64,000 bases of DNA from an uncultured cyanobacterium (GTDB lineage: Bacteria > Cyanobacteriota > Cyanobacteriia > Cyanobacteriales > CAWUOF01): contig CAVUSO010000001.1 of assembly GCA_963744145.1 (NCBI GenBank), positions 672,001 through 736,000 of the forward strand. The letters are read 5' to 3'. A program made the translations under genes and the position numbers. The first letter of the stretch is position 1; each line of letters starts with the position of its first letter. Positions 6,472 through 36,630 of the stretch are shown in pieces. The notes beneath the pieces are model-generated. The model was given only the letters and a program-made list of their open reading frames with translations. It was not told the origin of the DNA and made no database searches.

Positions 6472-6551
6472 GCCCACCAATACTCCATCAACTGGACAAG
6501 GGCTGATTGAAAAAGCTAGTTTTGTCAAAATCCGTTAATCTAATTAAATTT

Positions 6552-7577: not shown

Positions 7578-8105
7578 TAAATTGATCAATTAAAGTTTAA
7601 CTGATGGCAGTAGGTACTTATCTGGGGAAAATCTAGCCAATCTTGCTAGATCAATAGATCCGAGAGCCGAAAATGTGGTACAATATAATTTTTTTAAAAT
7701 CTGAGATTTACCCAAATATCAGATCAGATCAAAACTTTTGTCATCAAGCTCAATTTTTACTTCTGGTTTTTATCTGTGATAAATGTATGCAAATTAGGAT
7801 AGTCTAGACTAGGTAATAATAAAAATTGTTAACAAATAGGGGAATTCTTCCAATTCTTGAGGGAAAATAGAATTGATAGTTGAACCGCGACCGTCAAAAT
7901 GCCTAGATTGATTACAGTTAAAGGAGGAATCGCGAGCAATTAAAGATTAATATGTTAGTTATTTGGGTATATAGTAAAAAAAGGTTTTAATTTTGACGTA
8001 AGTAGTGTTCCCAGAAAAATCATAAATATGGCAAAAGGTTAGTAGGGTAGCGTGAGGTTAGAGCTACCAAAATTTGTAATAATCATTTTCAAGAGCTGTA
8101 AATGA

Positions 8106-11576: not shown

Positions 11577-12300
11577 TTATTCTGGCTCAATTTCTAACTT
11601 GCCGATAATTTTGGGCAAATTAACAGACATTGGTAAACAGATGTGATGATCTGATTGAGTGCTGATTAATCCTAATATTCGCAATCTACCCATTAAACGG
11701 GTGACTGTTACTCGAGTAGAACCAATAGCACTACCAATTTGAGCATGAGTGAGAGACCAGGGTAGACAGTAACCATCGTCACAAGGAATGCCAAATTCGC
11801 CAATTAATAAGGTGAGAAATCCTAACAAACGATCAATAGTGCGGCGCTGTCCCAAGGTACTGAGCCAGAGCAGTTTACGTTGATGTTGATAGCGAAATGC
11901 TGCTAATACTTCACTACGGAAATGGGGCCAATTGTCTGAAATCTTGCCAGTACATCCAGAGGACTGAGGTCTGATCAATATGAGCATAACTGGCTAGTGT
12001 AAAAGGTGGCTGAGTGATGATTTCAAAGGGTTCACCAGGACCAATAAAGCCCAAAAAAGATTCCTCAGTCTGGATCGGAGCTAAGGATGATGCGGAATTT
12101 GGAGTGGTCGCATCATGGTTAGATGTGGCTACTAATCTGACTGCACCCCGTTGAACTAAATAAAGTAACCCCGCACGAGTGGGGATTTTTTCATCTTTCT
12201 GAAAATCTCGACATCGGTAGTGTGATTCTGCCCAGTCTAAAATTGGTTGCCAAGTTAAAAAGGGTCGGGTTGCCTCTGCTAATGAGGAAATAGAATACAT
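11577..12300 (-). pseudogene. Crp/Fnr family transcription regulator, frameshifted
   Basis: MYWQD and DNWPHFR frames join if one base near 11938 is removed; C-terminal HTH THAQIGSAIGSTRVTVTRL. Confidence 0.85.
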
Positions 12301-12555
12301 AAAAATCGACAGATGAAGATAGCTCGAAATTTGCCTGAGATCCCAATTGACCGTTCGTTAATTAGGTTGGATTTTAGTTCTCCCTAAAACTCATTTATAT
12401 TCAGGATGATCTAGATCAACTATATAGAATAAATGCTTAAGAATAACCTGGTTGTTTCTCAGCATTTCTGCTGGATCAAGTTTTTACACTTAAAAGTCCC
12501 ATCGTCAGATTGAGAAAAATTAACAAGATCAAGCAAAACTTAGAGATGGTAGATC

Positions 12556-13398
12556 GTGAATTTAGGTTTAGTTAAATTAGATCAGCTCGGAATTAAACAA
12601 TTGCTGCGCCAGGGGTTGATGGCGGAATTAAGTTTGGCTCAGGATCAATTAAAATTATTTATGCCTGAGACGATGGTGATTCCCTTACTTAGAGCCAAAG
12701 ATGAGCAAAGAGTGTTTTATATCAGTGCGATCGCTTATAAATTAGCTCAACTCGATCAGATCCCTACCCAGGAAGTGGCAATTAGGTTAGCGACTCATTT
12801 GTCTGATTTATCGATAATTTCCCCAGATGGAAGACTGGAGTTAGAATTTGCAGTTGAGGTGGTTGGTCCGGGTTGGATTCACTTCCAGTTAAGCGATCGC
12901 AGTTTGGCTGATTGGTTACAAGGGATCATCCAGGGGGTTTGGTCAGTCAAGGGACAGTTACCAGATGCGATCGGGGTTTCTGAGAGTTTATTTCTGAGCC
13001 AATATGCTCATGCTCGTTGCTGTTCTTTGTTACGTTTAGCTCAAAGAGAAAGAATTATTGCCCTTGACCCAGCACCAGTGATCCCTTGGTTAAACTCTCG
13101 CGGACAATTACAATTACAAAAACCAGCAGAGTTAAAATTAATTGTCCAGCTAGTAGATCTCCTTGATGTTGTTTGCTGTCCTACTCGTGCGATCGGAACT
13201 CAGGATTTGATCAAATTAGCTAATACTTTGAGTCGATCCTTTACAGAATTTCATCGTTATTGTCAAATTTGGGGTGAAGTCCAGCAGATCAACCCGCAGA
13301 TATCGATAGTCCGACTTGGGTTGGTCATGGTTACCCAAAAAATTTTGCAGTTAATTTTAGAAACTTTTTTAGGTGTTTACAGTCCAGAGGAACTCTAA
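12556..13398 (+). CDS. ArgRS-like N-terminal plus DALR anticodon-binding domain protein, no catalytic core
   Basis: GPGWIHF and QYAHARCCSLLR motifs; no HIGH/KMSKS seen; start uncertain. Confidence 0.8.
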   Translation: MNLGLVKLDQLGIKQLLRQGLMAELSLAQDQLKLFMPETMVIPLLRAKDEQRVFYISAIAYKLAQLDQIPTQEVAIRLATHLSDLSIISPDGRLELEFAVEVVGPGWIHFQLSDRSLADWLQGIIQGVWSVKGQLPDAIGVSESLFLSQYAHARCCSLLRLAQRERIIALDPAPVIPWLNSRGQLQLQKPAELKLIVQLVDLLDVVCCPTRAIGTQDLIKLANTLSRSFTEFHRYCQIWGEVQQINPQISIVRLGLVMVTQKILQLILETFLGVYSPEEL

Positions 13399-13475
13399 CC
13401 CAGCTTGATTAGTCTTGATTATTCAAGGGTTAGTCGAGTTTTACTAATCAATTAGACAAAAAAAATTAATAATAC

Positions 13476-13504
13476 TTGACAAATTCCAGATGAAGCGATA
13501 TATT
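13476..13504 (+). promoter_or_regulatory. sigma70-type promoter of the Yfr2 sRNA
   Basis: TTGACA (13476-13481), 17 nt, TATATT (13499-13504), 6 nt before GTGTGAGGAG. Confidence 0.8.
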
Positions 13505-13510
13505 TTACCT

Positions 13511-13572
13511 GTGTGAGGAGCGAACCAGTAAGAACACCGAGACGAAACACGGCCAGTCGTCGGTGTTCTTTC
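13511..13572 (+). ncRNA. yfr2: Yfr2-family cyanobacterial sRNA
   Basis: 5' GTGTGAGGAG, perfect 11-bp stem AAGAACACCGA/TCGGTGTTCTT enclosing GAAACA, good promoter immediately upstream. Confidence 0.8.
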
Positions 13573-13584
13573 TGATGTATAACC

Positions 13585-14457
13585 TTAGAAAATGAATTTT
13601 TTGATCGCTGTAACCACTCCATCTTGTTCAACTTCTGGTGCTACCCATTGAGAAAAAGCTTTGACTGGTTCTGGAGCATTTCCCATCGCGACACCAATTC
13701 CAGCATATTCAAGCATTTCCACATCGTTAAAATTATCACCAATGACCATCACATTAGCCGCTTGTAACCCTAATATTTCCTCAGCTAAATAACGCACTGC
13801 TGTTCCTTTATTGACTAAAGGATTAGTAGCTTCAAAAAAATTAGCCACAGAAGTAGTGAGATATAATTCTGCTGGGGTGTAGCGTTGACGTAGAGTCCCA
13901 ATCAGATGGTCAATTATAGCAATATCATCACTAAGGGCTAAGATTTTGGTGGGTTCAGTAGTTAAAACTTGACGTAGATCACCAACGGGAATGGGTTGAA
14001 TCCCGGAACGTTGAGCATAAAGTTCAGTTTCTGGGGTTAATTCCCGAACATATAATTCCTCATTGATATAAAAGTGGACAGAAAGAGCAGAACGAAGTTC
14101 AGGTTGCTCGAAATAGTCTAACAGTTGTAAAGCCGCAGGGATGGAAACTGGTAGGTGACGATAAATTTGTTCGGTGGTAGGATCTTTAATCAGCGCTCCC
14201 TGGTAGGAAATGAGGGGAAGAATGGAATTGATTTCTTGATGAAAGCGCAAAGCAGAACGGTACATTCTCCCAGTCGCGATCGCAACCGGTATTCCCTTAG
14301 CTTGAACAGCTTGGATTGCTTGTTTTACTGGTTGACTAATCTCGTTTGATTCTCCTACGATAGTACCATCAATATCTAGCACTAGGAGTTGAATATTGCT
14401 CGATGTGCTAATCGAGTGAGTAGCTGAGGTTGATTGACCGATCGGTGTTGGCTGCAT
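13585..14457 (-). CDS. Cof-type HAD-IIB hydrolase
   Basis: DIDGT, ATGR, KG, GDNFND, AMGNA motifs. Confidence 0.93.
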   Translation of the reverse strand: MQPTPIGQSTSATHSISTSSNIQLLVLDIDGTIVGESNEISQPVKQAIQAVQAKGIPVAIATGRMYRSALRFHQEINSILPLISYQGALIKDPTTEQIYRHLPVSIPAALQLLDYFEQPELRSALSVHFYINEELYVRELTPETELYAQRSGIQPIPVGDLRQVLTTEPTKILALSDDIAIIDHLIGTLRQRYTPAELYLTTSVANFFEATNPLVNKGTAVRYLAEEILGLQAANVMVIGDNFNDVEMLEYAGIGVAMGNAPEPVKAFSQWVAPEVEQDGVVTAIKKFIF

Positions 14458-14548
14458 GATTTAATTAGGTAAGTCGGTAGTTAGACAAACAAGGTCATTA
14501 AGATTAGCTGCTCAGACACAATAATTTTCTCATAACCAAGATACTACG

Positions 14549-15397
14549 TTGAAGATCAAAGAAAATCTGCATCATCATCTCATTCAGATCGTGCGCGATC
14601 GCGATCCTTACCTGTCATCTGCTGGTCATTTCTATGTCCAGGAATATATTCGTCAAGAACTACAACAATGGGGAGAAGTTATTAATCACGAATTTCAGTT
14701 CAGGGGGACGACCCATTACAATCTTGTGTTGGATTTACCTACAGCTAATCCGCTTAATAAAAAGAAATTAGCACCGATTTTGATTGGGGCTCATTACGAT
14801 GCTGTCCCAGGGACACCGGGAGCAGATGATAATGCAACTGGGGTAGCAGTATTGTTGGAATTAGCAAGAGAATTTGCTACTAATCCAGTGAAATATCCCC
14901 TCCGATTGGTAGCTTTTGACTTAGAAGAATTGGGATTGTTAGGTAGTGCTGCTTATGCTCAGGATTTGCGGCAGCAAGGACAACCTTTGTCAATGATGTT
15001 ATCTTTAGAAATGCTGGGATATTGCGCTCGATCTGCTCATTCCCAAAGTTATCCACCAGGACTAGAATCTTTTTACCCAAACTCCGGAGATTTTATCGCT
15101 TTGGTAGGGAATTTACAGACAATTCCCAGGATGATCGGTCTAAGTCGTGATCTGAAGGAATCAGGAACCCCTTGTGAATGGTTACCAGTACCCCTAGGAG
15201 GTTCGACTATTCCTTATACCAGACTTAGTGATCATGCTCCTTTTTGGGATCATGGTTATCCAGCAATGATGGTAACTGATACGGCTTTTTTACGCAATCC
15301 CCATTATCATCAAAACAGCGATCGCATTGATACCCTTGATTTAGATTTTCTGACGAGTGTTTGTCAAGGATTGATCTTGGGAATTAATCGTTGGTAG
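14549..15397 (+). CDS. M28 family metallopeptidase
   Basis: GAHYD, GADDNATG, EE, SDH, YH motifs. Confidence 0.9.
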   Translation: MKIKENLHHHLIQIVRDRDPYLSSAGHFYVQEYIRQELQQWGEVINHEFQFRGTTHYNLVLDLPTANPLNKKKLAPILIGAHYDAVPGTPGADDNATGVAVLLELAREFATNPVKYPLRLVAFDLEELGLLGSAAYAQDLRQQGQPLSMMLSLEMLGYCARSAHSQSYPPGLESFYPNSGDFIALVGNLQTIPRMIGLSRDLKESGTPCEWLPVPLGGSTIPYTRLSDHAPFWDHGYPAMMVTDTAFLRNPHYHQNSDRIDTLDLDFLTSVCQGLILGINRW

Positions 15398-15416
15398 GGA
15401 GATTAATTTTGATCAT

Positions 15417-15684
15417 TAGACAAGAAAGAAAAAGTCCTGATTGATCTATTTATTGACAGGCAAGATGCCTGTCCCACCAGAATAAATAACTTTTGTGGGA
15501 CAGGCATCTTGCCTGTCCTATTTATTGTTGCTTTCTTGTCTATTAGAGCAAAGCATTTGTGGGACAGGCATCTTGCCTGTCCTATTTATTGTTGCTTTCT
15601 TGTCTATTAGAGCAAAGCATTTGTGGGACAGGCATCTTGCCTGTCCTATTTATTGTTGCTTTCTTGTCTATTAGAGCAAAGCAT
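15417..15684. repeat. Family 1 MITE/REP doublet with its right half present as three 64-bp tandem units
   Basis: Terminal inverted repeats TAGACAAGAAAG / CTTTCTTGTCTA; identical 64-bp units starting at 15493, 15557, 15621. Confidence 0.92.
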
Positions 15685-17697
15685 ATACTTTAGCTTCCCA
15701 AGGGAAAATCGCTTCTTTACCAACTTTATTACCAGGAACTATTCGTTCTTGAGTAATTTCTTTCCATTGCTTACCGATCGGTGTTAATGGCCAATTTGTC
15801 ACTATATATTCTGCGCCATGACTCTGGGGATTAGGAGTGCTATAATCGGAAAAATTAGCCACGACAACTACTAATTTATCTCCCTCACCTCTTTGCCAAG
15901 CTAACACTCGTTTACCACCATTCAAATCAACATGAATAAACTTGGTATCATTTACAGCTAAAGCATCAGAATTGGTACGAAAGCGAACTAATCTAGATAC
16001 ATACTTGAAGATCCGTTGACGCCAATCATCTTTTAGGCGACTATAATTAACAGGATCAATTTGTTTATTCATCTCTCCTTGTTTGGGCTGGTTGATATCT
16101 AAATCCATTTGATCTGCAAATTCATCACCAGCTAAAATCATGGGAATCCCAACCGCAGTTAATAAGCAAACAAAAGCTAATTTAATCCGCGGTTCTGCAT
16201 AGATGACACCATTGTTAATTAAGTAGTTGAAAAAGCGTTCGTTTCCAAAACCACCAACATCGTGAGAAGTTAAGTAATTGACAGCTTGGGTCCCATCGGT
16301 AAAACCTAAATTGCGACAGTCGATTAATTTACGAACACTCCATTCAAAACTCGAATCACCTAAAGCAGTTTTACCTAAAATTACTTGACGAATAATCTGT
16401 TTAAATTTTTCATTCCATAATCCATCTAAACGATTTTGTTTGATTAGAGCTAGGGGAACACTTAATTCTTCTCCTACTACTAGAAAGCGATCACTACTAC
16501 CTCCCCGTTCTTTCCAGAATCTCATGGGCAAAATCTTTAAATTCTTGCAAAAAGTCATAGTTAGCAATATTATTAACACTATCTAGACGCAAACCATCGA
16601 CTCGATAGTAGGTTAACCAATGAGCAATATAAGTTTTTAGATATTCCCGAGCAGGAACAAAGGATGATTTTTGTCCGGTGATCGGATGATAACCATTGAC
16701 CCAGAAATTGTATTTAAACAAATCTCCACCAAATCCATCTCGATGTTTTTCTTCCGGATCTCCACTGCCAACTTTAACATAAAAATCAAAAAAATTAATA
16801 TTGTGGTAAGGATTATTGCGGGAAAAAGCCATGACTACATCGAGAAAAAAGCGTAATCCATTTTGATGACAAGCTTTAATTAAATTAACTAAATTATTAG
16901 TAGCATTAGAGGGTTGAGATGCGGGTACTCCTGGTGGACGACCGAGATAGAAACTAGCTGAAAAATAGTTAGCAGTTCCATATCCCCAGGTGAGATCATC
17001 ATCACTATCTGCTGGAGGTAAAAGTTCGAGGGCATTAATTCCTAATTCTAGTAAATGAGCGCGATTATTTAAAGTAGTAACCGTGGGAAAACTAGGAGGA
17101 TTTTGGTTAGATATTAATAAAGCTAATACATCTTGAAATGTGCCATTACCTATTTCTGTAGTTCCGGTTGAGCGACTATGACTCCAACGAGTTGGTAATT
17201 CATAAATGACTAATCGATTATTTGGCGATCGGGATGGTAAAGGAGGATCACCTTGCCAATTGACGGTTTTTCCATCAGCATCACAAGGTATCAATTCACC
17301 ATTTTTATATAGCACAACACTGGCTGGATCGAAACTAGGAAATCCACCAAAGACAAAAGGGATTGGTGCAGAAAAACGTCGGTCAACTGTCCAAGCGATC
17401 GGATCGGTACAGTAGACAACTTCGATGAAACTCAAGATATTATAGGCGTCAGTATTGTGGACTTTAAACCAGTAAAAATAGACTTGTCCATTATTAAGCT
17501 TACATTTTTTAGCTTCTACCTGCCAAAGTTCTGGAAAATCTGGACATTGTTCCAAAGGAATTTCCCGAATTTTTTTTAAGTTGAGGGACTTAGATTTTGC
17601 TAATTGTGCTAGGTAAAGAGTTGGTTGAGGATAATTTTTACCTGGACAGCCATAAAATAAAATGAGTTTTCTTGCGATTTAATAAATCAACAGCCAT
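15671..17697 (-). pseudogene. GH13 alpha-amylase-family glycoside hydrolase with two frameshifts
   Basis: WGYG, RLDSV, VGEE, TSHD catalytic regions; reading from ATG 17697 (MAVDLLNRKKTHFILW) needs single-base corrections near 17650 and 16520. Confidence 0.85.
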
Positions 17698-17779
17698 AAC
17701 TGAACTTCCCCTGAGTGAACATAAGTCTATATTACATTATTTTTTCCTATAAAAAATTTTGGCTTGAGCTAAATGATTG

Positions 17780-17901
17780 ACCTAACCCCCCAACCCCCTT
17801 CCCTAAGAGGGAAAGGGGAGTAATTAAGATGGTTAAATTAATGGGAGATTTATTGGATTTATTCTGCTCCCCTTTCCTTTTAGGAGAGGGGTTGGGGGAG
17901 A
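17780..17901. repeat. REP-like doublet, C-rich/G-rich family
   Basis: CCCCCAACCCCCTTCCCTAAGAGGGAAAGGGGAG ... CTCCCCTTTCCTTTTAGGAGAGGGGTTGGGGG in inverted arrangement. Confidence 0.75.
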
Positions 17902-17962
17902 GTTCAAACAACTTTTATGGTACAATTAAACGGCATTAGTATTGATAGTGGATATTTCAAAT

Positions 17963-19813
17963 ATGCAAGACAACAATAATAATTTATTCGGGCAAGTTTA
18001 TTTTATCAGACATGGGGAAAGCACTAGCAATGAACGTAATATTTTTGCAGGGGTTTTAGATGTTCCACTTACTCCCTACGGTGAATTACAAGCACATCGT
18101 GCAGGAATCGATCTACAAACAAAGGGGATCAAGTTTGATGTAGTATATGTTTCCCATCTGAAACGTGCAAGACAAACCTGTGAAATAGTTCTTGCTACCA
18201 GTCAAACTCTTAAATCAGCAGATATTCCGATTCAGATTGACTATCGAATTAGTGAGCGATCACAAGGTATTTTTACCAACCGAAATAAAAATCTAGTTCG
18301 TTTAACTCTTGGTTATGAAAGTTTTGAAGAACTATTACATTCATATAATGAATTACCTCCCAATGGGGAAAAAATTGCTCAAGTTTATGCTCGGGTAGTG
18401 GCTTTTTATGAAGAGCGAATTATCCCCCATTTAGAACGAGGAGAAAATGTTTTAGTAGTCTGCCATGAATATATATTAGAACCTTTGTCAGTTTATTTAA
18501 GCGGTTTACCAGCAACTGCATATAAACGTCTAAAACTTCCTAATGCTAAAGCACTAAGTTGTGAAGACTTAATCAAATTTCGTGATTATGAATCTAGTCA
18601 AGGGGCAGAATTACGGAAAAAGATTAATGATCTTTTAACTATGTGGGCTATTCCCTTATATGCGATCGCATTTTTGCTTGGTAGTTTAGTAAAAGTAGTG
18701 AGTAGATCAGCAGAAATACCATCAAATATATTTATAGCAATAACCGTTACTGGTCTGGCTATTGCCACGTTTTATACTTATCTAAGTATTGATTTTCAAG
18801 AGAGTAAAGAACAAGTTAATCCTAAGATTAAGTATATAGTTTATTTCTGGATGTTAGCTCGATATTTAATCGGATTATTATTGATATTTTCTGGAATTTT
18901 AGATCAGAACTATGAAGATTTGGATAAAATTTTATGGGTAATTTTTTGGATGATGCCACCTGCATTAACATCCCCAGTTTTATCTCTTCTATGGGGTGGC
19001 AATCTTTATCCAGCTGCGATATTGTCAAGAACATTGTCGATGATTGCTCCCTTAGCACTAATTGCGATCTTGAGCATGGCGAAATTACCAATTAGTGTTA
19101 AAAGTCTGAACTTTTTTTATTTGATTCTAGTATTGGGATTAGCGATCCCAGCATTAATAGCTCAATTATGGCGTTCCCAATCTCCTGTTCAATCACATCA
19201 TCATAGTAACGAATGGAAATTTATCGGAGTGATGGCGATCGGGTTAATTAATATTGCGATCGGATTTCAATTTACCAAATCAACATTAATTTCGGATATA
19301 TTCTTATCAGTTGATCCTCGTGGTTCAGGAGCTTGTTTGAAGCAGCTAATCATCGCAATTATTATATTTCTCCTGCTCCGGATCTTAGCTATGTTAACTG
19401 CGATCGTTTCTAAACGCTGGCTCAATGCAGCGGAAGCACAGGATATTTATATACTGCTGACCAATCCAAATTTTCTACTTTGGGCTGCTCTGTTCAGTGG
19501 AGTAACTATTGATAATGGCAATCTAACATCTTTAAACTATCAAGTTTTTTGGGCAGCTATGGGATTCTATTGTCTGCCATTTTTTGATCAGTTATTTATC
19601 GTGAATCACTATAGCAGTGACTTATTACGAGAAACGTTAAAGCTATCTCAAATCGCCATGGAAGATGTCAAGAAAATTTTCCTTCAATCCTATAGTAATC
19701 AAGAAATTAATAAAGATGAGTTCGTGGAGTTTTTAGGTAAAATGGAAGATGTTACATTAGGTGAGCGTACTCCTGAAGAACTGAGAAGACATATTGCTGA
19801 TTATTACCTTTAA
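17963..19813 (+). CDS. Histidine phosphatase (PGM-like) fused to a multi-TM transporter-like domain
   Basis: IRHGES, R, ER and VCH motifs, then many hydrophobic segments including PPALTSPVLSLLWGGN; C-terminus possibly truncated. Confidence 0.8.
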   Translation: MQDNNNNLFGQVYFIRHGESTSNERNIFAGVLDVPLTPYGELQAHRAGIDLQTKGIKFDVVYVSHLKRARQTCEIVLATSQTLKSADIPIQIDYRISERSQGIFTNRNKNLVRLTLGYESFEELLHSYNELPPNGEKIAQVYARVVAFYEERIIPHLERGENVLVVCHEYILEPLSVYLSGLPATAYKRLKLPNAKALSCEDLIKFRDYESSQGAELRKKINDLLTMWAIPLYAIAFLLGSLVKVVSRSAEIPSNIFIAITVTGLAIATFYTYLSIDFQESKEQVNPKIKYIVYFWMLARYLIGLLLIFSGILDQNYEDLDKILWVIFWMMPPALTSPVLSLLWGGNLYPAAILSRTLSMIAPLALIAILSMAKLPISVKSLNFFYLILVLGLAIPALIAQLWRSQSPVQSHHHSNEWKFIGVMAIGLINIAIGFQFTKSTLISDIFLSVDPRGSGACLKQLIIAIIIFLLLRILAMLTAIVSKRWLNAAEAQDIYILLTNPNFLLWAALFSGVTIDNGNLTSLNYQVFWAAMGFYCLPFFDQLFIVNHYSSDLLRETLKLSQIAMEDVKKIFLQSYSNQEINKDEFVEFLGKMEDVTLGERTPEELRRHIADYYL

Positions 19814-26416: not shown

Positions 26417-26507
26417 TGTCAATTTGCTATTGACGAGTTGGGATACTGATGTTTTAATGATATCAAAATTTGGCGATCGCCAGCAGAAAATATCAAAAAA
26501 TATAGCT
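26417..26507 (+). repeat. Direct repeat A, copy 1, with putative promoter and HIP1
   Basis: 80/91 identical to 28663-28753 by hand alignment; TTGACG-17nt-TTTAAT with TGn extension. Confidence 0.88.
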
Positions 26508-26645
26508 CATCTAAAGATATAATTATATAATCCGATCTTTAGATAATCTTTTTTTATTGAAAGGATTATATATCATCGGTTGTTAGAGTGTAACCGCAGG
26601 CTAGACTGAAATTTAAAATTGGGTAACTAAGCAGGAGTGAGTAGA

Positions 26646-27710
26646 ATGGTTACAAAAATAGCCCTCTTTAATCATAAAGGTGGAGTTAGCAAGACTACAA
26701 CTACATTTAACCTTGGTTGGATACTTGCTGACAAAGGGAAAAAAGTGATTCTTGTGGATGCTGACCCACAATGTAACCTAACTGGCATGGCGTTGGGAGA
26801 GGGAACGGAGGATAATGAAGCCAGAATAGAAAAAATCTTCAATACACACTCAAATATCAAAATAGGTCTAGCGCCAGCTTTTGAATCGCAACCAAAAGCT
26901 ATTGAGGCAGTGGACTGTATTCCGATTAAAGGTCGAGAGGGATTATTTTTACTACCTGGTCATGTGGGCTTTGCAGAATATGAAGTAACCCTAGGTATTG
27001 CCCAAGAACTCAGTGCCTCAATTCAAGCTCTCAAAAATTTACCAGGTTCTATTACAGATTTGTTGGAAAAAACTGCCAAGAAGTTTGATGCGGATTACAT
27101 ATTGATTGATATGAGTCCAAGTTTGGGAGCAATCAACCAGAATTTATTGATGACTAGCGACTTTTTTATAGTGCCGACGACTGCTGATTTCTTTTCCGTA
27201 ATGGCAATTGATTCTTTAGCAAAAGTATTGCCAAAATGGTATGCCTGGGCAAAGGCAGCTAGTTCACTTCCAATCCTGAAAGATGCTGCCTATCCATTTC
27301 CTGATGTCACTCTGCGCTTTTTAGGGATTATTATTCAGAATTACCGAATCATTGGTGGCAAAGAAACTGCTGCTTTTGAAACTTGGATTCAGAAAATAGA
27401 GGAAAATGTTTCCTCTAAATTGGTGCCAATTCTACGTGAGCATAATATGATGCTGCCCAATCAAGTTTATGACCAACAGGGTATTAATCAAAATTTTTGT
27501 CTAACAAAAATTTCCAACTTTAATAGCCTAATTCCGCGCTCTCAAGAGTATGGAACTCCAATTTACGATCTGACCCCTCAGCAATTAGGGCAGGTAGGAA
27601 AAGTATTGGAAAATAACCAGAAAAAGCAAGCTGAGTTTCGAGAGATATTTTCAGACCTTGCAGATAAAATTATCGGATTAACATCTGCTGCCTATGCTGT
27701 CTGCGCTTAA
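26646..27710 (+). CDS. ParA/Soj-family ATPase
   Basis: Deviant Walker A KGGVSKTT, DADPQCNLT, ILIDMSP; AGGAG upstream; no parB next to it. Confidence 0.9.
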   Translation: MVTKIALFNHKGGVSKTTTTFNLGWILADKGKKVILVDADPQCNLTGMALGEGTEDNEARIEKIFNTHSNIKIGLAPAFESQPKAIEAVDCIPIKGREGLFLLPGHVGFAEYEVTLGIAQELSASIQALKNLPGSITDLLEKTAKKFDADYILIDMSPSLGAINQNLLMTSDFFIVPTTADFFSVMAIDSLAKVLPKWYAWAKAASSLPILKDAAYPFPDVTLRFLGIIIQNYRIIGGKETAAFETWIQKIEENVSSKLVPILREHNMMLPNQVYDQQGINQNFCLTKISNFNSLIPRSQEYGTPIYDLTPQQLGQVGKVLENNQKKQAEFREIFSDLADKIIGLTSAAYAVCA

Positions 27711-28443
27711 TCAATTCCAAATCAGTATTGCTCGTGTTCGAGACTTGATTTCTATTCATAATTCTGTCAAAGCTCAGTCTACTCCGGTCTTAGATTTGTC
27801 AGATATTTTGAGAGCTGCTTTAGTTCTGGCGGTGAGTGCTTTGGATTATTATGTGCATGAAGTTGTAATATTAGGAATAATAGAGATTCATAGAGGACAA
27901 CGTTCTGAGCCTAATCCTCCGCCCAACAGTTCTCAATCCGCATTTTCTCGTTTTCAAGTTTCATTGGGTGGCGCAAGACAAGAAAGATTAATAGCTATAG
28001 ATATTGCTTCTTGGCTAGAGAATGAAATCCAACAAAGTCAAGGTTACTCATTTTTACAACAGTCCTATACAGTCTCAGCTTTACTTCCATTGATATCAAG
28101 TAGTATTCACAACAGATTAAACAATACCTCTTGGCTAGAAGATGAAGTTCGCGATCGCCTTGGATACCAGAGTTTTCAGCAACCGGAAAAAATAGCTGAT
28201 GCGATTAGGCTGATTTCAGATCAGAAATTGTGGGATGAGGTGGCAGTGAAACTGGGCAAATCTGCAAAAGATGTTAAGCAACAACTCAGTGTAATTGTTG
28301 ATCGAAGAAACAAAATTGCCCATGAAGCTGATATAGATCCGACTTTTGGGATCGGAAATCGTTGGAACATTGATGAAAGTCAAGTTAACGATGCAGTTAA
28401 TTTTATTGAGCAAGTTGTTGAGAGCATTCATCAAGTTATTTAA
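27694..28443 (+). CDS. HEPN-domain protein, putative RNase
   Basis: DILRAALVLAVSALDYYVHE helix and RNKIAH (RxxxxH) motif; overlaps the ParA gene by 17 nt. Confidence 0.85.
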   Translation: MLSALNQFQISIARVRDLISIHNSVKAQSTPVLDLSDILRAALVLAVSALDYYVHEVVILGIIEIHRGQRSEPNPPPNSSQSAFSRFQVSLGGARQERLIAIDIASWLENEIQQSQGYSFLQQSYTVSALLPLISSSIHNRLNNTSWLEDEVRDRLGYQSFQQPEKIADAIRLISDQKLWDEVAVKLGKSAKDVKQQLSVIVDRRNKIAHEADIDPTFGIGNRWNIDESQVNDAVNFIEQVVESIHQVI

Positions 28444-28662
28444 GTGTATATGCAAATAATCTAAGCCGTCGATGGAGTGGATAAACAGAAGATATTGGTG
28501 GGGATACAAAAGTTATCTACCGATGGTGACTTGCTTTCCGAATGGCGGTTGAAACGCAAGAGGAACATATTACTGAAACTGTGAATTCTGGATCAGACGA
28601 AATTGATTAGGGTAGGGTGGCAACTTCTGGACTTTCTTTGGTGGTTGCGGTGGGTATTCTGT

Positions 28663-28753
28663 TGTCAATTTGGTCTTGACGAGTTTGGATAATGATGTTT
28701 TAATGATATCAAGATTTGGCGATCGCTCAAAGAAAATATTAAAGAATATAGCT
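28663..28753 (+). repeat. Direct repeat A, copy 2
   Basis: 80/91 identical to 26417-26507. Confidence 0.88.
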
Positions 28754-29107
28754 GGCAGATAAATCATATTTATATAATCTTTTTTTTTATATAATCTTTT
28801 TATATTTAAAGAAGATTCAAAAATGAGGATAGAAACTGCTATATTAAGAAATGTTGAAGAATTGTCTAAATCTGTCAAATAGGCAGTTTTTAACTATACA
28901 AATCTTAGAAAGGATATCAAGTGTATGGGGCGACTCTAGAAATAGCTGAAATGCCTTCTGTATAATGATTTTGGTGAAACCTGTGGAAAAGCGTAAATTT
29001 ACCGATTAAATACTTGCGGTTTTATGTGTTGCAATGATATGTGAAATTGTCCTTGCTCTACAATTAATAGTTAGACTCTAATTTCAGGAAAGTTTAGTGA
29101 AAAATTT

Positions 29108-30220
29108 ATGAACACATCCTCACATATTTTAAAGCTAATTATGTCAGGCAACATAAATGTTCCGGCAATGATTAACGCTATTATTCGAGCGACGCTTGAA
29201 GCCAGAGAAAACGCTAAAGACCCTAGTTTAATATTCCGTCAAATACATATTTTTCATACAGAGCAATCTCTACAAGCTATGATGGCAAAGTCTAATTCTT
29301 GGCAGTCGGACATTGACTGTCTAACTCAAAGTTTAACAGCGTTATTACCAGTTGGCTTTGATTTAGAGCATCTACAAACTTCTCTACTCTCTGGAATTAA
29401 CTCACGATTATTGGGAGAAGTGACAGGAGAATCATATAATTATCGCCATTCTGTATTTTCATCCTCGGCTGGTGTTGAAGAAATGGCAAATATTCTACTC
29501 AGCATTATACAAGGTGCTGATCTAGAAAATAAAACTCTTGGAAACAAACTTAATGATATATATAGTTTTGCTAAAAATAATCCTAAATATTTTATTAATA
29601 CAAAAGTTTTAGAACATCTTAATCGTTGAATAGCAGAAGTTCGTAATGATGTGGTACACCCAACATCTGGAATTGAAAGAGACAAAGAAACAACAGCAAT
29701 TCAGTCATATCTTTCATCACAGCTTTCTGTTGCTTTTCTTCAGTTTACCATCAAGGCATTGTCTGTTTTCTTGGATGAGCAAGGAAAACTTCTTGATGTT
29801 TTGGTACTTGAAGCAGCAGAAGATGATCAAAGTTTATTTTATTTTGGGTTTGATGGAGATGCCACGGGAGATTATTTGGAAATAGCTTTTGGCGATTTAG
29901 CTCAAGATGAGTCTGAAGTTTTGAGTAGAAGTGAAAAACTTCGAGAAGCAATCAAAAAATTAAAGACTGTAATATTTAAAGAAACAAAAAATAATAAGTC
30001 TGTTCTTTTTGCTGAAGGTGACAACATATTATTTAAAGCCCCATATAACCAAGCTTTACTAAATAAATTACAACAAATTTATACTGATGAAACAGGTCTC
30101 AATTGCAGTATTGGTTATGGAAGTACGTTACGAGAAGCTGCGATAGCTATGCGGCTAGCAAAGGGAAAAGAAGGCAATAGTATCGTTGGTGTGGCAGTGA
30201 AAAGTAATTACACGGAGTAA
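29108..30220 (+). pseudogene. CARF-like / HEPN / mCpol (minimal CRISPR polymerase) fusion interrupted by an in-frame TGA
   Basis: ORFs 29108-29629 and 29651-30220 share a frame; read-through gives 370 aa with RNDVVH, FDGDATG, AEGDNIL and CSIGYGSTLREAAIAMRLAK. Confidence 0.8.
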
Positions 30221-30288
30221 TCCTAATTTCTGGCAAAGCTGGTTTAACAAGCAATACATTTAGAATTATTCTAGCGTTGCACGCACTG

Positions 30289-30358
30289 AATATGTCAACC
30301 ATTAGACAAACACATGATTGCTATAGGATAGCGATCGCCCACAGCTACTCCTGGTGGT
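30289..30358 (+). repeat. Direct repeat B, copy 1, contains HIP1
   Basis: 62/70 identical to 36897-36966 by hand alignment. Confidence 0.88.
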
Positions 30359-30508
30359 AGCATTTGATCTATATATGCCAATTCATCTGTTGTCAGTTCT
30401 ATGTCAACACTTTTGACATTTCATTGCTGCAAACCAAAGATACCCGATTTCTAGGATTACTCAATTGTTGTTCTCATCATCTATTTTAGAGCAACTTACT
30501 AAGATTTC

Positions 30509-31020
30509 TCAGGTTTTAGCAGCCATACTCACTTTTTCCTTTCGCCATTTTTCTGCACTTTGTTTAACCGCTTCTATTTCCTCAAAATCTACCCGGATCA
30601 CAGCCGTTTCAAATTCTACACCCAAAACTGTGCTAACTTCGAGTATTTCTACAAAACTTGCACATTGGTAATCTGTATCCTCATACTGCCTAACTTGCTT
30701 TTCTTCAATTCCTAGTATCTGAGCTAGTTCTTGCTGACTGATTTTGGCTGCTATCCTAGCTTTAATTAAAGCATCTGGCAACTTATTTATGCTCTCAACT
30801 TTAATGTGAATTGGCTGAGTTGTATCACAATTAATCATTTTTTATATTCAGCAATTTCTGACTTTAATTCGTCAACTTGACTTTGATACGAGTCTCGATG
30901 AAGTTGCCAACGCAGTTGGTCAGCTTTCAAGTTTTCATTATTATCTAATTCCGCTACAGACTTTTCAAATCGCTGTAACCAATCTAAAGAGTTCTGGTAT
31001 TGTTGCTCATTTTTTATCAT
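30509..31020 (-). pseudogene. Xre/HTH antitoxin-like regulator, frameshifted
   Basis: MIKNEQQY...EIAEYKK and MINCD...LIKARIAAKISQQELAQILG join if one A is added to the A6 run near 30840. Confidence 0.8.
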
Positions 31021-31170
31021 GGGTCCCACCTTTGTAAATCTATTGCAATAATTCCTTTGCGTGTATTTTTCATTGGATCAAATTGAAAAAAGTCTATGTA
31101 AGTTATACCCGCGTCATTAGCTGGGTAATTGGATGGAAAAAACTCCCCCCTGTATTTATTTTTTTGTTCC
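31017..31170 (-). pseudogene. 3' remnant of a DUF6932-like putative toxin gene
   Basis: Reads EQKNKYRGEFFPSNYPANDAGITYIDFFQFDPMKNTRKGIIAIDLQRWDP*; its TGA overlaps the Xre ATG (ATGA). Confidence 0.65.
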
Positions 31171-31197: not shown

Positions 31198-34100
31198 CTA
31201 TCTATGATGAATAGGTATCTCGATCGCTATCTCCGTGCCCTTTCCAATGGTTGAATTACAGGTTAATTGACCGTCATGTTTTTTGATAATAGCATAGCTG
31301 ACTGATAAACCTAACCCTGTGCCACTTCCCACAGCTTTAGTGGTAAAGAATGGATCAAATATACGGGATTGAATCTCTGGAGGAATACCCATCCCATTAT
31401 CCGCGATCGCAATTCTGACTCGGTCTTTTCCGATTACCTCAGTCTGAATCCGAATTAACGGATCTTTACCAGGTTGACTAATTTCTTCGATCGCATCAAT
31501 CCCATTACTGATAATATTTAGAAATACTTGATTTAACTGACTAGCATAACAAGTGACATTCGGCAAGTCTCCATACTCTTTAATAACTTGGATTGCTGGT
31601 CGTCCACCATCGCGGTTTAAGCGGTTTTGTAAAATTAGTAAAGTGCTATCAATCCCGGAATGTAAATCTACCTCTTTCATCTCCGATTCATCTAAGCGGG
31701 AAAAATTTCGCAAACTCAGGATAATTTGGCTAATGCGATCGCTTCCTGCTTTCATTGATTGAAGAATATTAGTTGCATCTGACCAGATAAATTCGAGTTC
31801 AATTTCTTGGATTTTGGCTTGAATTACTGGATTGGTTTCTGGATATTCCTGCTGATAAAGCTCTAGTAAACTTAGCAAATTCTTGATATAATTTTCCGTA
31901 TGTTTAATATTCCCACTAATAAACGTCACTGGATTGTTAATTTCATGAGCTATCCCCGCTACCAATTGACCCAAAGATGACATCTTCTCACTCTGAATTA
32001 ATTGTGCTTGAGTTTGTTGTAAATTAATCAAAGTTTGCTCTAAATCAAAAGCTTTTTGGTTTAAAGCTTCAGTTTTTCTAGCTACTTCGGATTCTAGAGT
32101 TTGAGAATAACTCTCAATTTGTTTATACAGACGAGCATTTTGAATAGATATGGCGGCTTGAGCTGCAAGCAATTGAAGAATATTTACCCGTTCGCTGGTA
32201 AATGCTCCCACGGTTAAGTTATTTTCTAAGTACAAAATCCCCATTACTTTGCCTCGTTTACTAATCGGAATACCTAACGCTGATTTAGGTTGATAAGTAA
32301 TCACATAGCGATCGTGAGCAAATTGCGGTGTGGTACTTAAGTTATCAAACACAGCCGTTTCTTGAGTCCGAGCCACAGTATAAATCAAACTATGGGGAAT
32401 TTCCTGGTATTGTTCGAGGGAAATTTCTAAGATATTCGTGTGCTTTTTGGCAGTTTGAGCAACCACAAACCATTGTTCATCTTGACGCAGAACTAAACAA
32501 CCGATTTGTGCCCCAGCATGAGCGATCGCAATATTCATCAAGGTTGCTAATAGTTGATCTAATTCAATTTCTTGTGAGATCGCTTGTGCTGCTCTCATCA
32601 CTCCGGGAAAGTCTAACCATAAATTATCGGTGCTAGTGGTGCTAATTAAGCCTCTCATTAGGGTTGAGTTGACGGTTACTCCATGAGTAATCATATTGCC
32701 ATCATGTTGAAGAATAGTATTCAGTAATTCTGGATATTTTTGTTCTAAATGAGCAACTTTAGCCTTGGCACCCCAACGAGCATAACAGTAGTACGCTTCT
32801 TGCATATATTTTGTGGCGAATTTTTCTTGACCCACAGCAAGATAGAATTTGGCTGCTAGCTCATTAGCTAAGGCTTCTTCTTGGATATATTGATTTTTTT
32901 TCGCGATGGCGATCGCGCGATTATAATGATCGATCGCTTCATGGTTTTTTCCTAATACTCGATACTTTTCAGCTCTGAGCAAATCAACCTTATGTTGGTG
33001 ATTCATTGGTGCATAGTGCGCCCAATATTGCTGGAGCTGTAATTCATTTTGTGCTACTCGCTCTAATATTTCTACGGCTGGATCTAAATCAAGATTTAAC
33101 TGTGCCAGAGCAATTAAAGAATCGTAGAAATAAAACGCAGGTTCACCAACAGTTCCGGCACCAGCCCTTAAATATTTTCTACATTCAATCCTGTAGAGTT
33201 TAGCTAGCTCAATTTCCTCAAACCAGAAGCAAAGGGTCAGTTTATGCAAATAGAAGAAATACAGCCCATATAAGTCCTTACCAGCTAGTAACCCATGTAG
33301 AAATTCTGTCTCTTGAAAACAGTTTTCTCCTGACAAAACACAGGGATTTTCTCCAAAACCCAGCAAATTTAAAATAGTTTGCCAACATATTCGGCAGTAA
33401 TTGCTTGTTGTTAACAGGTTCAATTTAACCAATTGATTGCAGTATGCTTTAGCATCTTGCTCCAAGAATACCAGGTCTTGACTAGACCAAAAAGAATTGA
33501 TACAAAAGATTTGTGCTGCATATCCCGCATAGCCCAGGTTGCCAACTTCTAGACTGGTTATGTAAGCATCTTGTAAGACAGATAAAGTTTCTTTAATATG
33601 TAATTTACGATGTAAAATAAACATTCCTAGCACATGTAATATTTGCGACTTGATCGTTTTATTTTCTAGTTTTGAGTTAACTCGGAGTGCTAACTGTCCA
33701 AATTGTGTTCCTCGATCGATATCTTGTAAGGTATTGCACAACATCATGCCATAGGAAACATAGCTATAAGCTGTCATAGATGTGTTTCCATACTGAATAG
33801 ATAGATTGACGGACAAAGAAGTTAACAAGGGATATAAATATGATCCAGTCACTAGAGCAGAGGGCACCATACTATTAGCAACCTGAACGATCACCAATTT
33901 GGTTTGATCTGTCATTATTGGTAGATCTACAAATTCTGCAATCTGTCTGTCTCCAATTAGTCTCCTGATTTCCTCCGTTACCTGCTCAAGGGATGTACTT
34001 GATTCAGTTAATATTATTCCCAGCTGTTCGAGAAACTGTTGACCGATCGCGAGTGCTTCGACTAGCTGATTGCGAGCAGCATTAGCTTGAATTCTCAATC

Positions 34101-36630
34101 GATAAATATTGACTTGTTCAAGTAAAGAGTGTGTCTGATGAGTGACAGTTTTAATCAACTCTTCCATTTGCTGAAAATCGCCGCACAAATAAGCCACCTC
34201 AGCTGCTGCTTCATGGAAAGCTAAGGTCATTTCATATTGCTGTTGCCAAGCATTTTCTCCCAACAGCGACAATCCCACTAAAGCATATTCACGCGCTGCT
34301 TGATAAGCTGTTGCTGTTCTAGCTTTACGACAAGCTATAAGATTGAGTTCGACTAATTCATTTCGCTCAGTTTGTTTGGTAATTAAAGAAATTCCATAGT
34401 TTAATTGGTTGACTAGTTCAAAAATACGTTCTTCTCTTTCTTCTGAAGAAATTTGTTGTAATAGGAGTTGTCCAATCTGGTAATGAGTATGCTGTTTTTG
34501 CTCATCAGGAATCAAAGAATAACTTGCTTGTTGAACACGGTCGTGCAAAAATCGATAAGTGGGATTAACTGAGTCTGGGAAAGCTTCTTCACTCTCTGTT
34601 TGGGTAAAAAACTTATAGATTTTGGTAGTGGGAATTACTAAATTTTCCTGTAATGCTTTCCATAAAAGTCTAGCCGTAATTACCGCAGATTTCTCACTGA
34701 CAATTACCAAGGTATTCAAATCAAATTCGGCTCCAATACAAGCCGCTAATTTGAGGATATTCTGAGTTTCTGTCGGCAATTTCTGCAATTGCAAAGCCAT
34801 GAACTCCATAACATTATCGGTAATTGCTAGGGCTTTAACTTGAGCAATGTCACATTGCCAATGTCTACTTTTCCCATCAAAGGTAATTAGCTGATCCTGA
34901 TGTAATGCTTTGAGAAACTGGGTCGCAAAGAAGGGATTCCCATTAGTTTTTTGATAGATTAATTTGGTCAAAGGTTCTGCTAGGGATAAGGTACAATTCA
35001 GGGTATCTGCTACTAACCAATTTACATCTGATTCGCTTAATGATGGCAAAGTAATTGAATTGACTGTTACTCCATTTTTGCTGATCTCATCCACTGTCAA
35101 AATAAATGGATGTACGCTGGAAACTTCATTATCTCGATAGGCTCCTAATATTAATAAATATCTTTTATCTTGAACTAATAATTTTAGCAAATTTAGCGAA
35201 GCTGAATCCGCCCATTGCAAATCATCCAAAAAAATTACTAAGGGATGTTTAGCATTAATAAACACTTGCACAAACTTTTGCATGAGTAAATTAAAGCGAT
35301 TTTGGGCAGCACTTCCTGATAGTTCCGGTGCTTTTGGCTGTTTACCAATGATGTTTTCTAGTTCAGGAATTACGTCAATTAAAACTTGTCCGTTGTCTCC
35401 TAATGCTACTAAAATCTCAGTTTTCCATATTTGGAGTTGGAGATTTGATTCGGACAGCAATTGTCTCATTAAGTCGCGGAAAGCTTGCACAAATGCACTG
35501 AAGGGAAGGTTACGTTGAAATTGATCATATTTACCTTTAATAAAATAACCTCGTTGTCGCACAATCGGTTTATGCACTTCATTCACAACTGCGGTTTTCC
35601 CAATTCCTGAAAAACCTGCTACTAGCATAATTTCGGTGCTACCTGTGCAGACTCTTTCAAAGGCTGCTAATAGTTGGGTAACTTCTGTTTCCCTACCGTA
35701 GAGTTTTTCTGGAATGGTAAAGCGATCGCTAATATCTCGCTTACCAATTTCAAAATATTCGATCTTACCTGTTGCTACTAATTGTGCTAAACAAATTTCT
35801 AAATCCTGCTTTAATCCCAAGGCACTTTGATAGCGATCTTCCGCATTTTTTGCCATTAGTTTGCTGACAATTTCCGACAAGACTAAGGGAATTTTTGAAT
35901 TAATTTGATGGATAGGAGTCGCTTGTTTGGCTAGATGACAATGCACTAATTCCATTGCATCTTCTGAATCAAATGGTAATACTCCTATCAACAATTCATA
36001 AAATGTGATCCCAAGTGAATAAAAATCACTTCGATAGTCAATCCCTCGATTCATTCTCCCGGTTTGTTCTGGAGAGATATAAGTTAATGTTCCTTCTAAA
36101 ACTTTGGGATTCTCAATTTCTTGAGTTTCTCGTGGCAGCAGGGAAGCAATACTGAAGTCAATTAGTTTGACTTTTTTACTAGCTGGGTTAATTAATATAT
36201 TAGCAGGTTTAATGTCTTTATGAATGATTCTATTTTGGTAAAGATAGTTGAGAATATCTGCGAGTTGAATGGCAATATTAAAAAATTCTATTAATGGTAA
36301 CGATGTATGTTTTTGGTTCTGCTCTATCCCGATCTTTAGATAATCAGACAGCGAAATTCCCTGAAAATCTTCCATCACTAAGATATAGCTATTGCGATAT
36401 GGCTCTAAAGTCAGGGTTTTGATAATGTGAGTGAAGCTAATGTTTTTAGCAATGGTATATTGGTTACAAAACTGGACTATTTCGTTAAAAGTAGGATATT
36501 CATTTCGCAATAATTTAATTACTACAGGTGCTTGATCACTTTCCCTTAGTCCTCGATATACTATAGTGCGAGTACCTAGATAAAGTTGCTCGGTAATCTG
36601 GTAACCTAATATACTTAAAATTGTATTCAT
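31198..36630 (-). CDS. Ser/Thr kinase - AAA ATPase - GAF - histidine kinase hybrid
   Basis: HKDIKPAN, SPEQTGR, GFSGIGKT, DDLQWAD, LYLENN, AHEINNP, GTGLGL motifs; 1810 aa. Confidence 0.95.
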   Translation of the reverse strand: MNTILSILGYQITEQLYLGTRTIVYRGLRESDQAPVVIKLLRNEYPTFNEIVQFCNQYTIAKNISFTHIIKTLTLEPYRNSYILVMEDFQGISLSDYLKIGIEQNQKHTSLPLIEFFNIAIQLADILNYLYQNRIIHKDIKPANILINPASKKVKLIDFSIASLLPRETQEIENPKVLEGTLTYISPEQTGRMNRGIDYRSDFYSLGITFYELLIGVLPFDSEDAMELVHCHLAKQATPIHQINSKIPLVLSEIVSKLMAKNAEDRYQSALGLKQDLEICLAQLVATGKIEYFEIGKRDISDRFTIPEKLYGRETEVTQLLAAFERVCTGSTEIMLVAGFSGIGKTAVVNEVHKPIVRQRGYFIKGKYDQFQRNLPFSAFVQAFRDLMRQLLSESNLQLQIWKTEILVALGDNGQVLIDVIPELENIIGKQPKAPELSGSAAQNRFNLLMQKFVQVFINAKHPLVIFLDDLQWADSASLNLLKLLVQDKRYLLILGAYRDNEVSSVHPFILTVDEISKNGVTVNSITLPSLSESDVNWLVADTLNCTLSLAEPLTKLIYQKTNGNPFFATQFLKALHQDQLITFDGKSRHWQCDIAQVKALAITDNVMEFMALQLQKLPTETQNILKLAACIGAEFDLNTLVIVSEKSAVITARLLWKALQENLVIPTTKIYKFFTQTESEEAFPDSVNPTYRFLHDRVQQASYSLIPDEQKQHTHYQIGQLLLQQISSEEREERIFELVNQLNYGISLITKQTERNELVELNLIACRKARTATAYQAAREYALVGLSLLGENAWQQQYEMTLAFHEAAAEVAYLCGDFQQMEELIKTVTHQTHSLLEQVNIYRLRIQANAARNQLVEALAIGQQFLEQLGIILTESSTSLEQVTEEIRRLIGDRQIAEFVDLPIMTDQTKLVIVQVANSMVPSALVTGSYLYPLLTSLSVNLSIQYGNTSMTAYSYVSYGMMLCNTLQDIDRGTQFGQLALRVNSKLENKTIKSQILHVLGMFILHRKLHIKETLSVLQDAYITSLEVGNLGYAGYAAQIFCINSFWSSQDLVFLEQDAKAYCNQLVKLNLLTTSNYCRICWQTILNLLGFGENPCVLSGENCFQETEFLHGLLAGKDLYGLYFFYLHKLTLCFWFEEIELAKLYRIECRKYLRAGAGTVGEPAFYFYDSLIALAQLNLDLDPAVEILERVAQNELQLQQYWAHYAPMNHQHKVDLLRAEKYRVLGKNHEAIDHYNRAIAIAKKNQYIQEEALANELAAKFYLAVGQEKFATKYMQEAYYCYARWGAKAKVAHLEQKYPELLNTILQHDGNMITHGVTVNSTLMRGLISTTSTDNLWLDFPGVMRAAQAISQEIELDQLLATLMNIAIAHAGAQIGCLVLRQDEQWFVVAQTAKKHTNILEISLEQYQEIPHSLIYTVARTQETAVFDNLSTTPQFAHDRYVITYQPKSALGIPISKRGKVMGILYLENNLTVGAFTSERVNILQLLAAQAAISIQNARLYKQIESYSQTLESEVARKTEALNQKAFDLEQTLINLQQTQAQLIQSEKMSSLGQLVAGIAHEINNPVTFISGNIKHTENYIKNLLSLLELYQQEYPETNPVIQAKIQEIELEFIWSDATNILQSMKAGSDRISQIILSLRNFSRLDESEMKEVDLHSGIDSTLLILQNRLNRDGGRPAIQVIKEYGDLPNVTCYASQLNQVFLNIISNGIDAIEEISQPGKDPLIRIQTEVIGKDRVRIAIADNGMGIPPEIQSRIFDPFFTTKAVGSGTGLGLSVSYAIIKKHDGQLTCNSTIGKGTEIAIEIPIHHR

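Follow-up and report, generated by a model that had tools for sequence, protein, structure and literature searches.

A probable recent pseudogene of a CARF-HEPN-mCpol gene in a cyanobacterial chromosome and the recurrent decay of its family

A 64-kb segment of a cyanobacterial chromosome (64,000 nucleotides, 38.4% G+C; hereafter the window) carries, at positions 29108 to 30220 of the plus strand, two open reading frames (ORFs) that raise the question of whether a single-chain defence protein is concealed there. The initial annotation had read them as a fusion of a CARF-like sensor, a HEPN RNase and a minimal CRISPR polymerase (mCpol) hidden by one stop codon, and had proposed a one-protein cyclic-nucleotide defence system, perhaps a self-regulating trap. 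Our analysis indicates that the region is very probably a recently inactivated pseudogene of a stand-alone chromosomal CARF-HEPN-mCpol gene. Two independent lesions, an internal deletion of about 134 codons and a TGA in place of a conserved Leu, disable the window copy, and the locus cannot yield a full-length three-domain protein. It should be annotated as a pseudogene, neither as two genes nor as a hidden fusion.

The initial reading of the frames and motifs was confirmed. An ATG at 29108 starts a 173-codon ORF that is closed by the TGA at 29627-29629; past this codon the same frame resumes and ends at the TAA at 30218-30220, giving a read-through of 370 residues. The ORFs 29108..29629 and 29651..30220 therefore share a frame, with the TGA as their sole separator. 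The segments KLIMSGN, AMINAII and QIHIFHTEQS are located in the N-terminal part of the read-through, while SIGYGSTLREA lies close to its C-terminus. The sequence 5' of the TGA had no Pfam match, and the 3' part matched Pfam mCpol PF18182 with an E-value of 8.5e-29 (aa 71-187 of the 29630-30217 translation). The mCpol palm occupies 29840..30190 (+) by PF18182 and Foldseek, and both of its motifs, D-G-D (in FDGDATG, 29849-29869) and G-D-[DN] (in AEGDN, 30011-30025), are present. The proposal that the C-terminal domain is an mCpol palm was also borne out by a match of the family profile to the sequence of the Panoptes mCpol OptS (9mnr; E 3.9e-6) and by Foldseek template modelling (TM) scores of 0.73-0.81 to OptS/mCpol structures. 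Moreover, the read-through matched the PADLOC model CARF_HEPN_mCpol with E 3.4e-128 in two pieces, the larger of which aligns window aa 69-364 with profile positions 180-470 of 471. The signal of the locus in these Pfam and PADLOC matches is far above chance.

The read-through, with X at the stop, was searched against 5.8 billion clustered proteins, and 83 relatives were retrieved, 63 of which measure 476-545 aa. The closest of them, P0001 (508 aa), is 79% identical to the window read-through and matched CARF_HEPN_mCpol over its whole length (E 1.8e-190; profile positions 2-469 of 471), whereas the window offers no end-to-end match in one ORF of about 500 aa. P0001 was modelled with AlphaFold2 on an alignment of 62 sequences, and the model had a mean predicted local distance difference test (pLDDT) score of 84.3 and three domains. 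Residues 1-176 form an alpha/beta Rossmann-like domain, residues 181-351 an all-helical one and residues 363-497 a palm. In a Foldseek comparison with the PDB, Csm6 came first (6tug, E 1.2e-7; also 8pe3 and 5fsh), followed by Csx1 (6qzt), and the next folds were CARF ring nucleases and Cad1-CARF (TM to target 0.53-0.59). The palm of P0001 superposed on OptS mCpol (9pd0/9mnr) with a TM to target of 0.73-0.77 and a root-mean-square deviation of about 3 Å. The likeness of the N-terminal domain to CARF is weak at the level of sequence, where Pfam Cas_APE2256 matched the family under its cut-off (E 3e-4 to 0.13).

Conservation was measured on 39 full-length representatives with identity down to 21%. 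In P0001 numbering, D116 of the CARF loop, D382-G383-D384 of the palm and G437-D438 of the palm were present in all 39, while R311, N312 and H316 of the HEPN domain were each present in 38. This bears out the reading of RNDVVH as the conserved HEPN motif of the family. At position 439, 28 representatives have D and 10 have N, which is the residue of the window's clade. Thus, the intact relatives are CARF, HEPN and mCpol joined in one chain of about 500 aa. They do not occur as two separate genes, and 11 genome loci hold a single ORF of 496-533 aa.

Compared with these relatives, the window copy is interrupted twice. In pairwise and multiple alignments, window aa 1-66 align with P0001 aa 1-66, and window aa 69-370 with P0001 aa 201-500. 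The first block (codons 1-66, 29108..29305, +) is a CARF stump with 77% identity to P0001 by BLASTP and tblastn; it is predicted to keep only a strand-helix-strand-helix unit, which in the model of the read-through corresponds to E8-13, H18-36, E43-49 and H52-60. The deletion junction lies at 29306..29311 (codons 67-68, Ser-Asp), where about 134 codons equivalent to P0001 aa 67-200 are absent relative to the intact homologues, and alignment columns 93-241 are empty for the window row alone. In the P0001 model, four of the six Rossmann-like strands fall within this stretch, together with the first HEPN helix and the D-x-T-G-G loop that bears the invariant D116. Of 105 columns with a conservation of 90% or more among 27 homologues, 39 are lost with it. 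The Rossmann-like core with its D-x-T-G-G loop, in which D116 is invariant and G120 occurs in 37 of 39, is present in all 39 full-length representatives and deleted in the window. Accordingly, the claim that a single stop codon hides the fusion fails, and the claim of a CARF-like N-terminus holds for the intact relatives, whereas the window keeps a 66-residue stump.

The second lesion falls within the HEPN domain. The N-terminal part of this domain (window aa 69-173, 29312..29626, +) corresponds to P0001 aa 201-305 and to PADLOC profile positions 180-283 of 471. It runs into the nonsense codon TGA at 29627..29629, five codons 5' of the HEPN catalytic motif, at a position occupied by Leu in each of the 27 aligned homologues. 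The C-terminal part (29630..29764, +) carries the R-N-x3-H motif RNDVVH (29642-29659), whose R179, N180 and H184 are invariant in the alignment; the window copy retains this motif, but on the 3' side of the stop. The two-domain CARF-HEPN fold seen in the P0001 model is missing from the model of the window read-through.

The common frame of the two ORFs and the intact state of every retained catalytic motif would suit a functional single-chain CARF/HEPN/mCpol protein that needs only read-through or recoding of the TGA, but we consider this explanation highly improbable. Since the CARF core, including the invariant D116, is deleted, read-through would not bring the sensor back. The AlphaFold model of the read-through gave only palm or Cas10-type structures among the PDB matches listed, and no Csm6, Csx1 or CARF structure appeared in the best 50 of these. 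Its palm resembled OptS (9pd0/9mnr) and the mCpol structure 9nwn with Foldseek TM scores of 0.78-0.81. Furthermore, the two sides of the junction appear to be out of frame with each other in the relative P0085 described below, judging from the N-terminus of that protein.

Recoding or selenocysteine insertion at the TGA was considered and rejected. The column is uniformly Leu rather than Cys, selenocysteine or Trp, and TGA is an ordinary stop in the window, ending 6 of 37 Pfam-supported genes. In-frame stops of relatives sit elsewhere (about aa 356 in locus L003; about aa 239 and 366 in locus L015). An Rfam scan of the window matched no family, and hence no model of a selenocysteine insertion sequence (SECIS).

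An error of sequencing or assembly, with the gene intact in the organism, is extremely improbable. Stops can arise from single-base errors, and nothing more specific speaks for it; a gap of 134 codons in frame is no base-calling error. An independent assembly supplies P0085, a protein of 109 aa that matches window aa 69-173 with 100% identity, begins just past the same junction and terminates at the same ...EHLNR. The stop is not an assembly error, because another assembly ends at the same residue. The N-terminus of P0085, MAVG, fits the junction DNA of the window minus one base. The two copies seem to differ by a one-nucleotide indel at the junction, as read from the protein only.

The decay is recent, as judged from conserved columns, per-domain identity and branch length. 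Of the 66 conserved columns that the window still has, only 2 are altered, one by T172N and the other by the stop, which compares with 0-3 of about 106 in intact controls. Over the HEPN domain, the window matches P0001/P0002 at 126 of 150 positions, and P0001 matches P0002 at 115 of 151; over the linker and mCpol the values are 111 of 148 and 101 of 149, respectively. In a quick tree built from the window, the 11 intact loci and 11 database proteins (23 rows, with the disrupted loci excluded), the terminal branch of the window was 0.093, compared with 0.16 for P0001 and 0.13 for P0002.

Two points weigh against the conclusion that the copy is dead. The read-through model is confident, with a mean pLDDT of 86.0, which is mostly due to the alignment of intact relatives. 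In addition, relaxed constraint is not evident in what the window has retained, and the sequence would therefore be compatible with a residual function of the 189-aa ORF. This ORF (P0084; 29651..30220, +) starts with GTG, carries a complete mCpol preceded by the linker and the final HEPN helices, ends at the TAA at 30218-30220, and is recorded on a 7.63-Mb contig.

The last point leads to the alternative that the remnant has been exapted and is expressed as an orphan mCpol cyclase serving another sensor or system, which we regard as unlikely. Its mCpol is complete, the two altered conserved columns are both located 5' of this domain, and the model superposes on OptS within the TM range given above. 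PMC12657230 and PMC12657218 describe enzymatic activity for stand-alone mCpols of about 120-130 aa. However, the GTG start lies inside a HEPN helix, and promoter-like matches in 28400-30600 were at chance level (13, against 8.8 ± 3.1 in shuffles). The neighbours and 40 window ORFs contained no CARF, SAVED or nucleotide-sensor Pfam match (E <= 1e-5), 2TM-beta and CARF-TM partners not having been specifically sought. Moreover, intact conserved residues are equally expected under recent decay, and C-terminal fragments of similar size in other genomes (such as the 172-aa P0088 of Coleofasciculus and P0094 of Brasilonema) are by-products of different lesions. If the orphan cyclase did exist, decay of defence genes would be a source of free-standing mCpol enzymes. 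Under the preferred reading of the locus as a pseudogene, this dead copy is of little importance in itself, and the interest lies in the family to which it belonged.

The architecture that the initial annotation had put forward as a candidate system is not new. PADLOC-DB v2.0.0 (2023) already catalogues the family as model CARF_HEPN_mCpol (PDLC01967), and the window element is a decayed member of it. With reference to Makarova et al. 2020, PMC13577387 names the fusion of mCpol with an RNase of the Csx1 family as a potential defence by a single protein, and PMC12657218 mentions mCpol fusions to HEPN RNases. A literature search that covered few subscription journals found no functional study of a CARF-HEPN-mCpol fusion. 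The window copy belongs to the same family as its closest protein, P0001, and differs from the model in that it has lost the CARF core, at about profile positions 60-180, and carries the nonsense codon.

The intact proteins combine features of several known systems. The first 350 or so residues of P0001 fit Csm6/Csx1 best (6tug, 8pe3, 5fsh and 6qzt; E 1e-7 to 5e-5), and the R-N-x3-H motif of the intact homologue is carried by this same part. The family differs from Csm6/Csx1 in having its own C-terminal cyclase and in lying mostly away from cas genes, as in the window and in 10 of the 11 intact loci. The cyclase domain is shared with Panoptes type I (OptS mCpol with the 2TM-beta protein OptE) and type II (mCpol with CARF-TM), and type II likewise couples mCpol with a CARF sensor. 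Panoptes is, however, a two-gene operon with a membrane effector, whereas the CARF-HEPN-mCpol protein holds cyclase, sensor and RNase in one soluble chain. A further point in the comparison with Panoptes is the motif, for which most members of the family have G-D-D and those of the window's clade G-D-N. No two-gene operon of the Panoptes type was seen at the locus, where the neighbours had no CARF or nucleotide-sensor Pfam match, transmembrane helices not having been predicted. In addition, the palm is homologous to that of Cas10 (Csm1/Cmr2), as indicated by a sub-threshold match to Pfam Cas10-Cmr2_palm2 and by Foldseek matches to Csm1/Cmr2. In contrast to Cas10, the family has a single palm of about 115 residues and lacks an HD domain, a second palm in the chain and a CRISPR RNA complex.

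To determine the distribution of the family, a single genome of each GTDB species was scanned, which gave 23 loci, chiefly in filamentous cyanobacteria and otherwise in Nitrospirota, Chloroflexota, Vulcanimicrobiota and Bacteroidota. One locus, L014, was truncated by a contig end, which left 22 informative loci, 11 intact and 11 disrupted. The intact single ORFs are those of L001, L002, L004, L006-L012 and L017. The disruptions comprise stops, frameshifts, deletions and an abutting transposase ORF. L003 has a single stop near aa 356, L005 a frameshift near aa 445 and L013 a break at aa 467, while L015 combines its two stops with a Gly-to-Cys change in the D-G-D motif. A frameshift was found in L016, two in L022 and several each in L020 and L021. 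In L018, aa 180-312 are deleted together with a frameshift, L019 begins at aa 113 beside a DUF772 transposase ORF, and L023 retains aa 322-508 alone. The database protein P0049 (Okeania, 334 aa) shows yet a different internal deletion.

Six of the loci come from isolate genomes, two of them intact and four disrupted, and the remainder from metagenome-assembled genomes (MAGs), in which some frameshifts could be assembly errors. The intact isolate alleles are L004 (Microcoleus vaginatus HSN003) and L008 (Kamptonema sp. UHCC 0994). Decay is unusually frequent (11 of the 22 informative loci), perhaps because it is costly, through autoimmunity, to have a cyclase joined to the RNase that it controls. 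Members of the family are rare: when 1.84 billion representatives were searched with a profile, 370 matched at E <= 1e-3, 66 of which reached E <= 1e-30, and tblastn of P0001 against 72,556 plasmid and 50,697 phage records gave no match. As a separate observation, the 419-aa protein P0036, from a short metagenomic contig, has a DUF5615/PIN-like N-terminus (E 4.4e-12) in place of CARF with the HEPN-mCpol body unchanged; it is either a domain-swap variant or the product of a chimeric contig.

The surroundings of the intact genes were heterogeneous. Pfam analysis of 41 flanking ORFs at the 11 intact loci found Uma2, DUF433, HicB/PIN, insertion sequence fragments and housekeeping genes. All-against-all BLASTP of 167 ORFs from the 23 loci and 8 window ORFs revealed no neighbour family common to the loci beyond Okeania/Dapis synteny. 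The initial annotation had noted an absence of cas genes, which applies to the window, where no cas gene Pfam match was found among the ORFs scanned, and to 10 of the 11 intact loci. It does not apply to L007, the only intact locus linked to CRISPR, in which the gene (9547-11061) stands within a complete type III-B cassette of an Anaerolineae MAG (6118-18992), directly upstream of cmr2. The order there is Cas4, Cas2, Cas1, a Cas_NE0113 protein, CARF-HEPN-mCpol, Cmr2, Cmr3, RAMPs, Cmr5 and a Card1-like CARF protein.

In Csm6 and Csx1, the CARF and HEPN domains function as dimers. The mCpol palm also dimerises to build its active site, according to PMC12657230. Because each of the three domains is known as a dimer, the homodimer is the likely unit, and the intact protein would act in this form. 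The paired palms would make cyclic oligoadenylate from ATP, and the CARF pair would bind this nucleotide and thereby switch the Csm6-like HEPN RNase. The outcome of this switch would be growth arrest upon infection.

With regard to the direction of the signal, we lean towards activation of the RNase by the nucleotide, following the logic of Csm6, over inhibition as in Panoptes. One reason is that the sensor-effector half resembles Csm6/Csx1. Another is that L003, L005 and L013 retain an open CARF-HEPN frame with the cyclase lost or truncated, a loss that should harm the host if the nucleotide were an inhibitor. The third is that the L007 copy is operonic with Cas10.

The inverse logic is the less probable of the two for the intact proteins, though a sizeable possibility, and it concerns the family as a whole, separately from the verdict on the window locus. 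The tethered cyclase would constantly supply a nucleotide that restrains the HEPN RNase, and the RNase would be released once phage sponges or ring nucleases had depleted this nucleotide. Both characterised mCpol systems, Panoptes I and II, signal by inhibition according to PMC13712596 and PMC13577387, including a CARF effector held inactive by cyclic triadenylate (cA3), and a cyclase fused to its own sensor would otherwise require a separate off-state. Set against this, the CARF-HEPN structures that resemble the model are all Csm6/Csx1, which published abstracts describe as activated by cyclic oligoadenylate. The products of Cas10 in the type III-B operon are likewise activators, and the three loci that keep the CARF-HEPN ORF without the cyclase part disagree with inhibition. 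This argument from decay comprises three loci, two of them from MAGs with possible assembly errors, and the direction of regulation 'remains to be seen' according to PMC12657218.

Intact CARF-HEPN-mCpol genes are good experimental targets. The family is a rare single-chain union of cyclic-nucleotide synthase, CARF sensor and HEPN RNase, and PMC13577387 and PMC12657218 flag it as a possible one-protein immune system whose signal direction is open. About half of the genomic copies are broken, and several broken ones have lost the cyclase alone, which can guide experiments; L004 and L008 supply alleles from isolates.

The window contains genes for NdhF, Psb28, a CobN/Mg-chelatase-family protein, a DUF3134 protein and others. 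It holds no second copy of the family and, in a check for a hallmark of integration, no tRNA gene in its 64 kb. The neighbours of the mCpol pseudogene are a ParA-like ATPase, a RiboL-PSP HEPN protein, an Xre helix-turn-helix (HTH) protein and small ORFs. Farther downstream, 31198-36630 (-) encodes an 1810-aa protein that combines a Ser/Thr kinase with AAA_16 ATPase, GAF and histidine kinase domains. The PADLOC PD-T4-6 models match its kinase domain (E 4.8e-51), which is probably generic kinase similarity and not evidence of defence.

Immediately upstream of the pseudogene lies a pair of genes (26637-28443) that showed no linkage to it in other genomes. The ParA-like ATPase (26637..27710, +; AAA_31, E 1.6e-31) overlaps by 17 nucleotides the gene of a RiboL-PSP-type HEPN protein (27694..28443, +; E 4.6e-15) with the motif RRNKIAH. 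The pair fits the 'ParA-effector systems' with HEPN RNase of a preprint (10.64898/2026.10.19.760177). A direct repeat of about 150 nucleotides, at 26417-26565 and 28663-28811, brackets this cassette; its 91-nucleotide core is 88% identical between the copies and includes the palindrome GCGATCGC. A 20-nucleotide core of the repeat occurs only at these two sites in the window (0.04 expected by chance), which suggests either insertion of the cassette or a site duplicated at its borders. A 102-aa ORF at 28570..28878 (-) overlaps the second repeat copy, has no family match and is probably spurious.

Downstream of the pseudogene, a toxin-antitoxin-like pair occupies 30509-31029 (-). It consists of a 64-aa ORF (30835..31029, -), which has no family match and overlaps its partner by 4 nucleotides, and a 109-aa Xre-type HTH protein (30509..30838, -; HTH_3, E 1.1e-4) with weak NCBIfam antitoxin matches. 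Together, the ParA-HEPN pair, the mCpol pseudogene and the toxin-antitoxin-like pair form a small patch resembling a defence island amid housekeeping genes.

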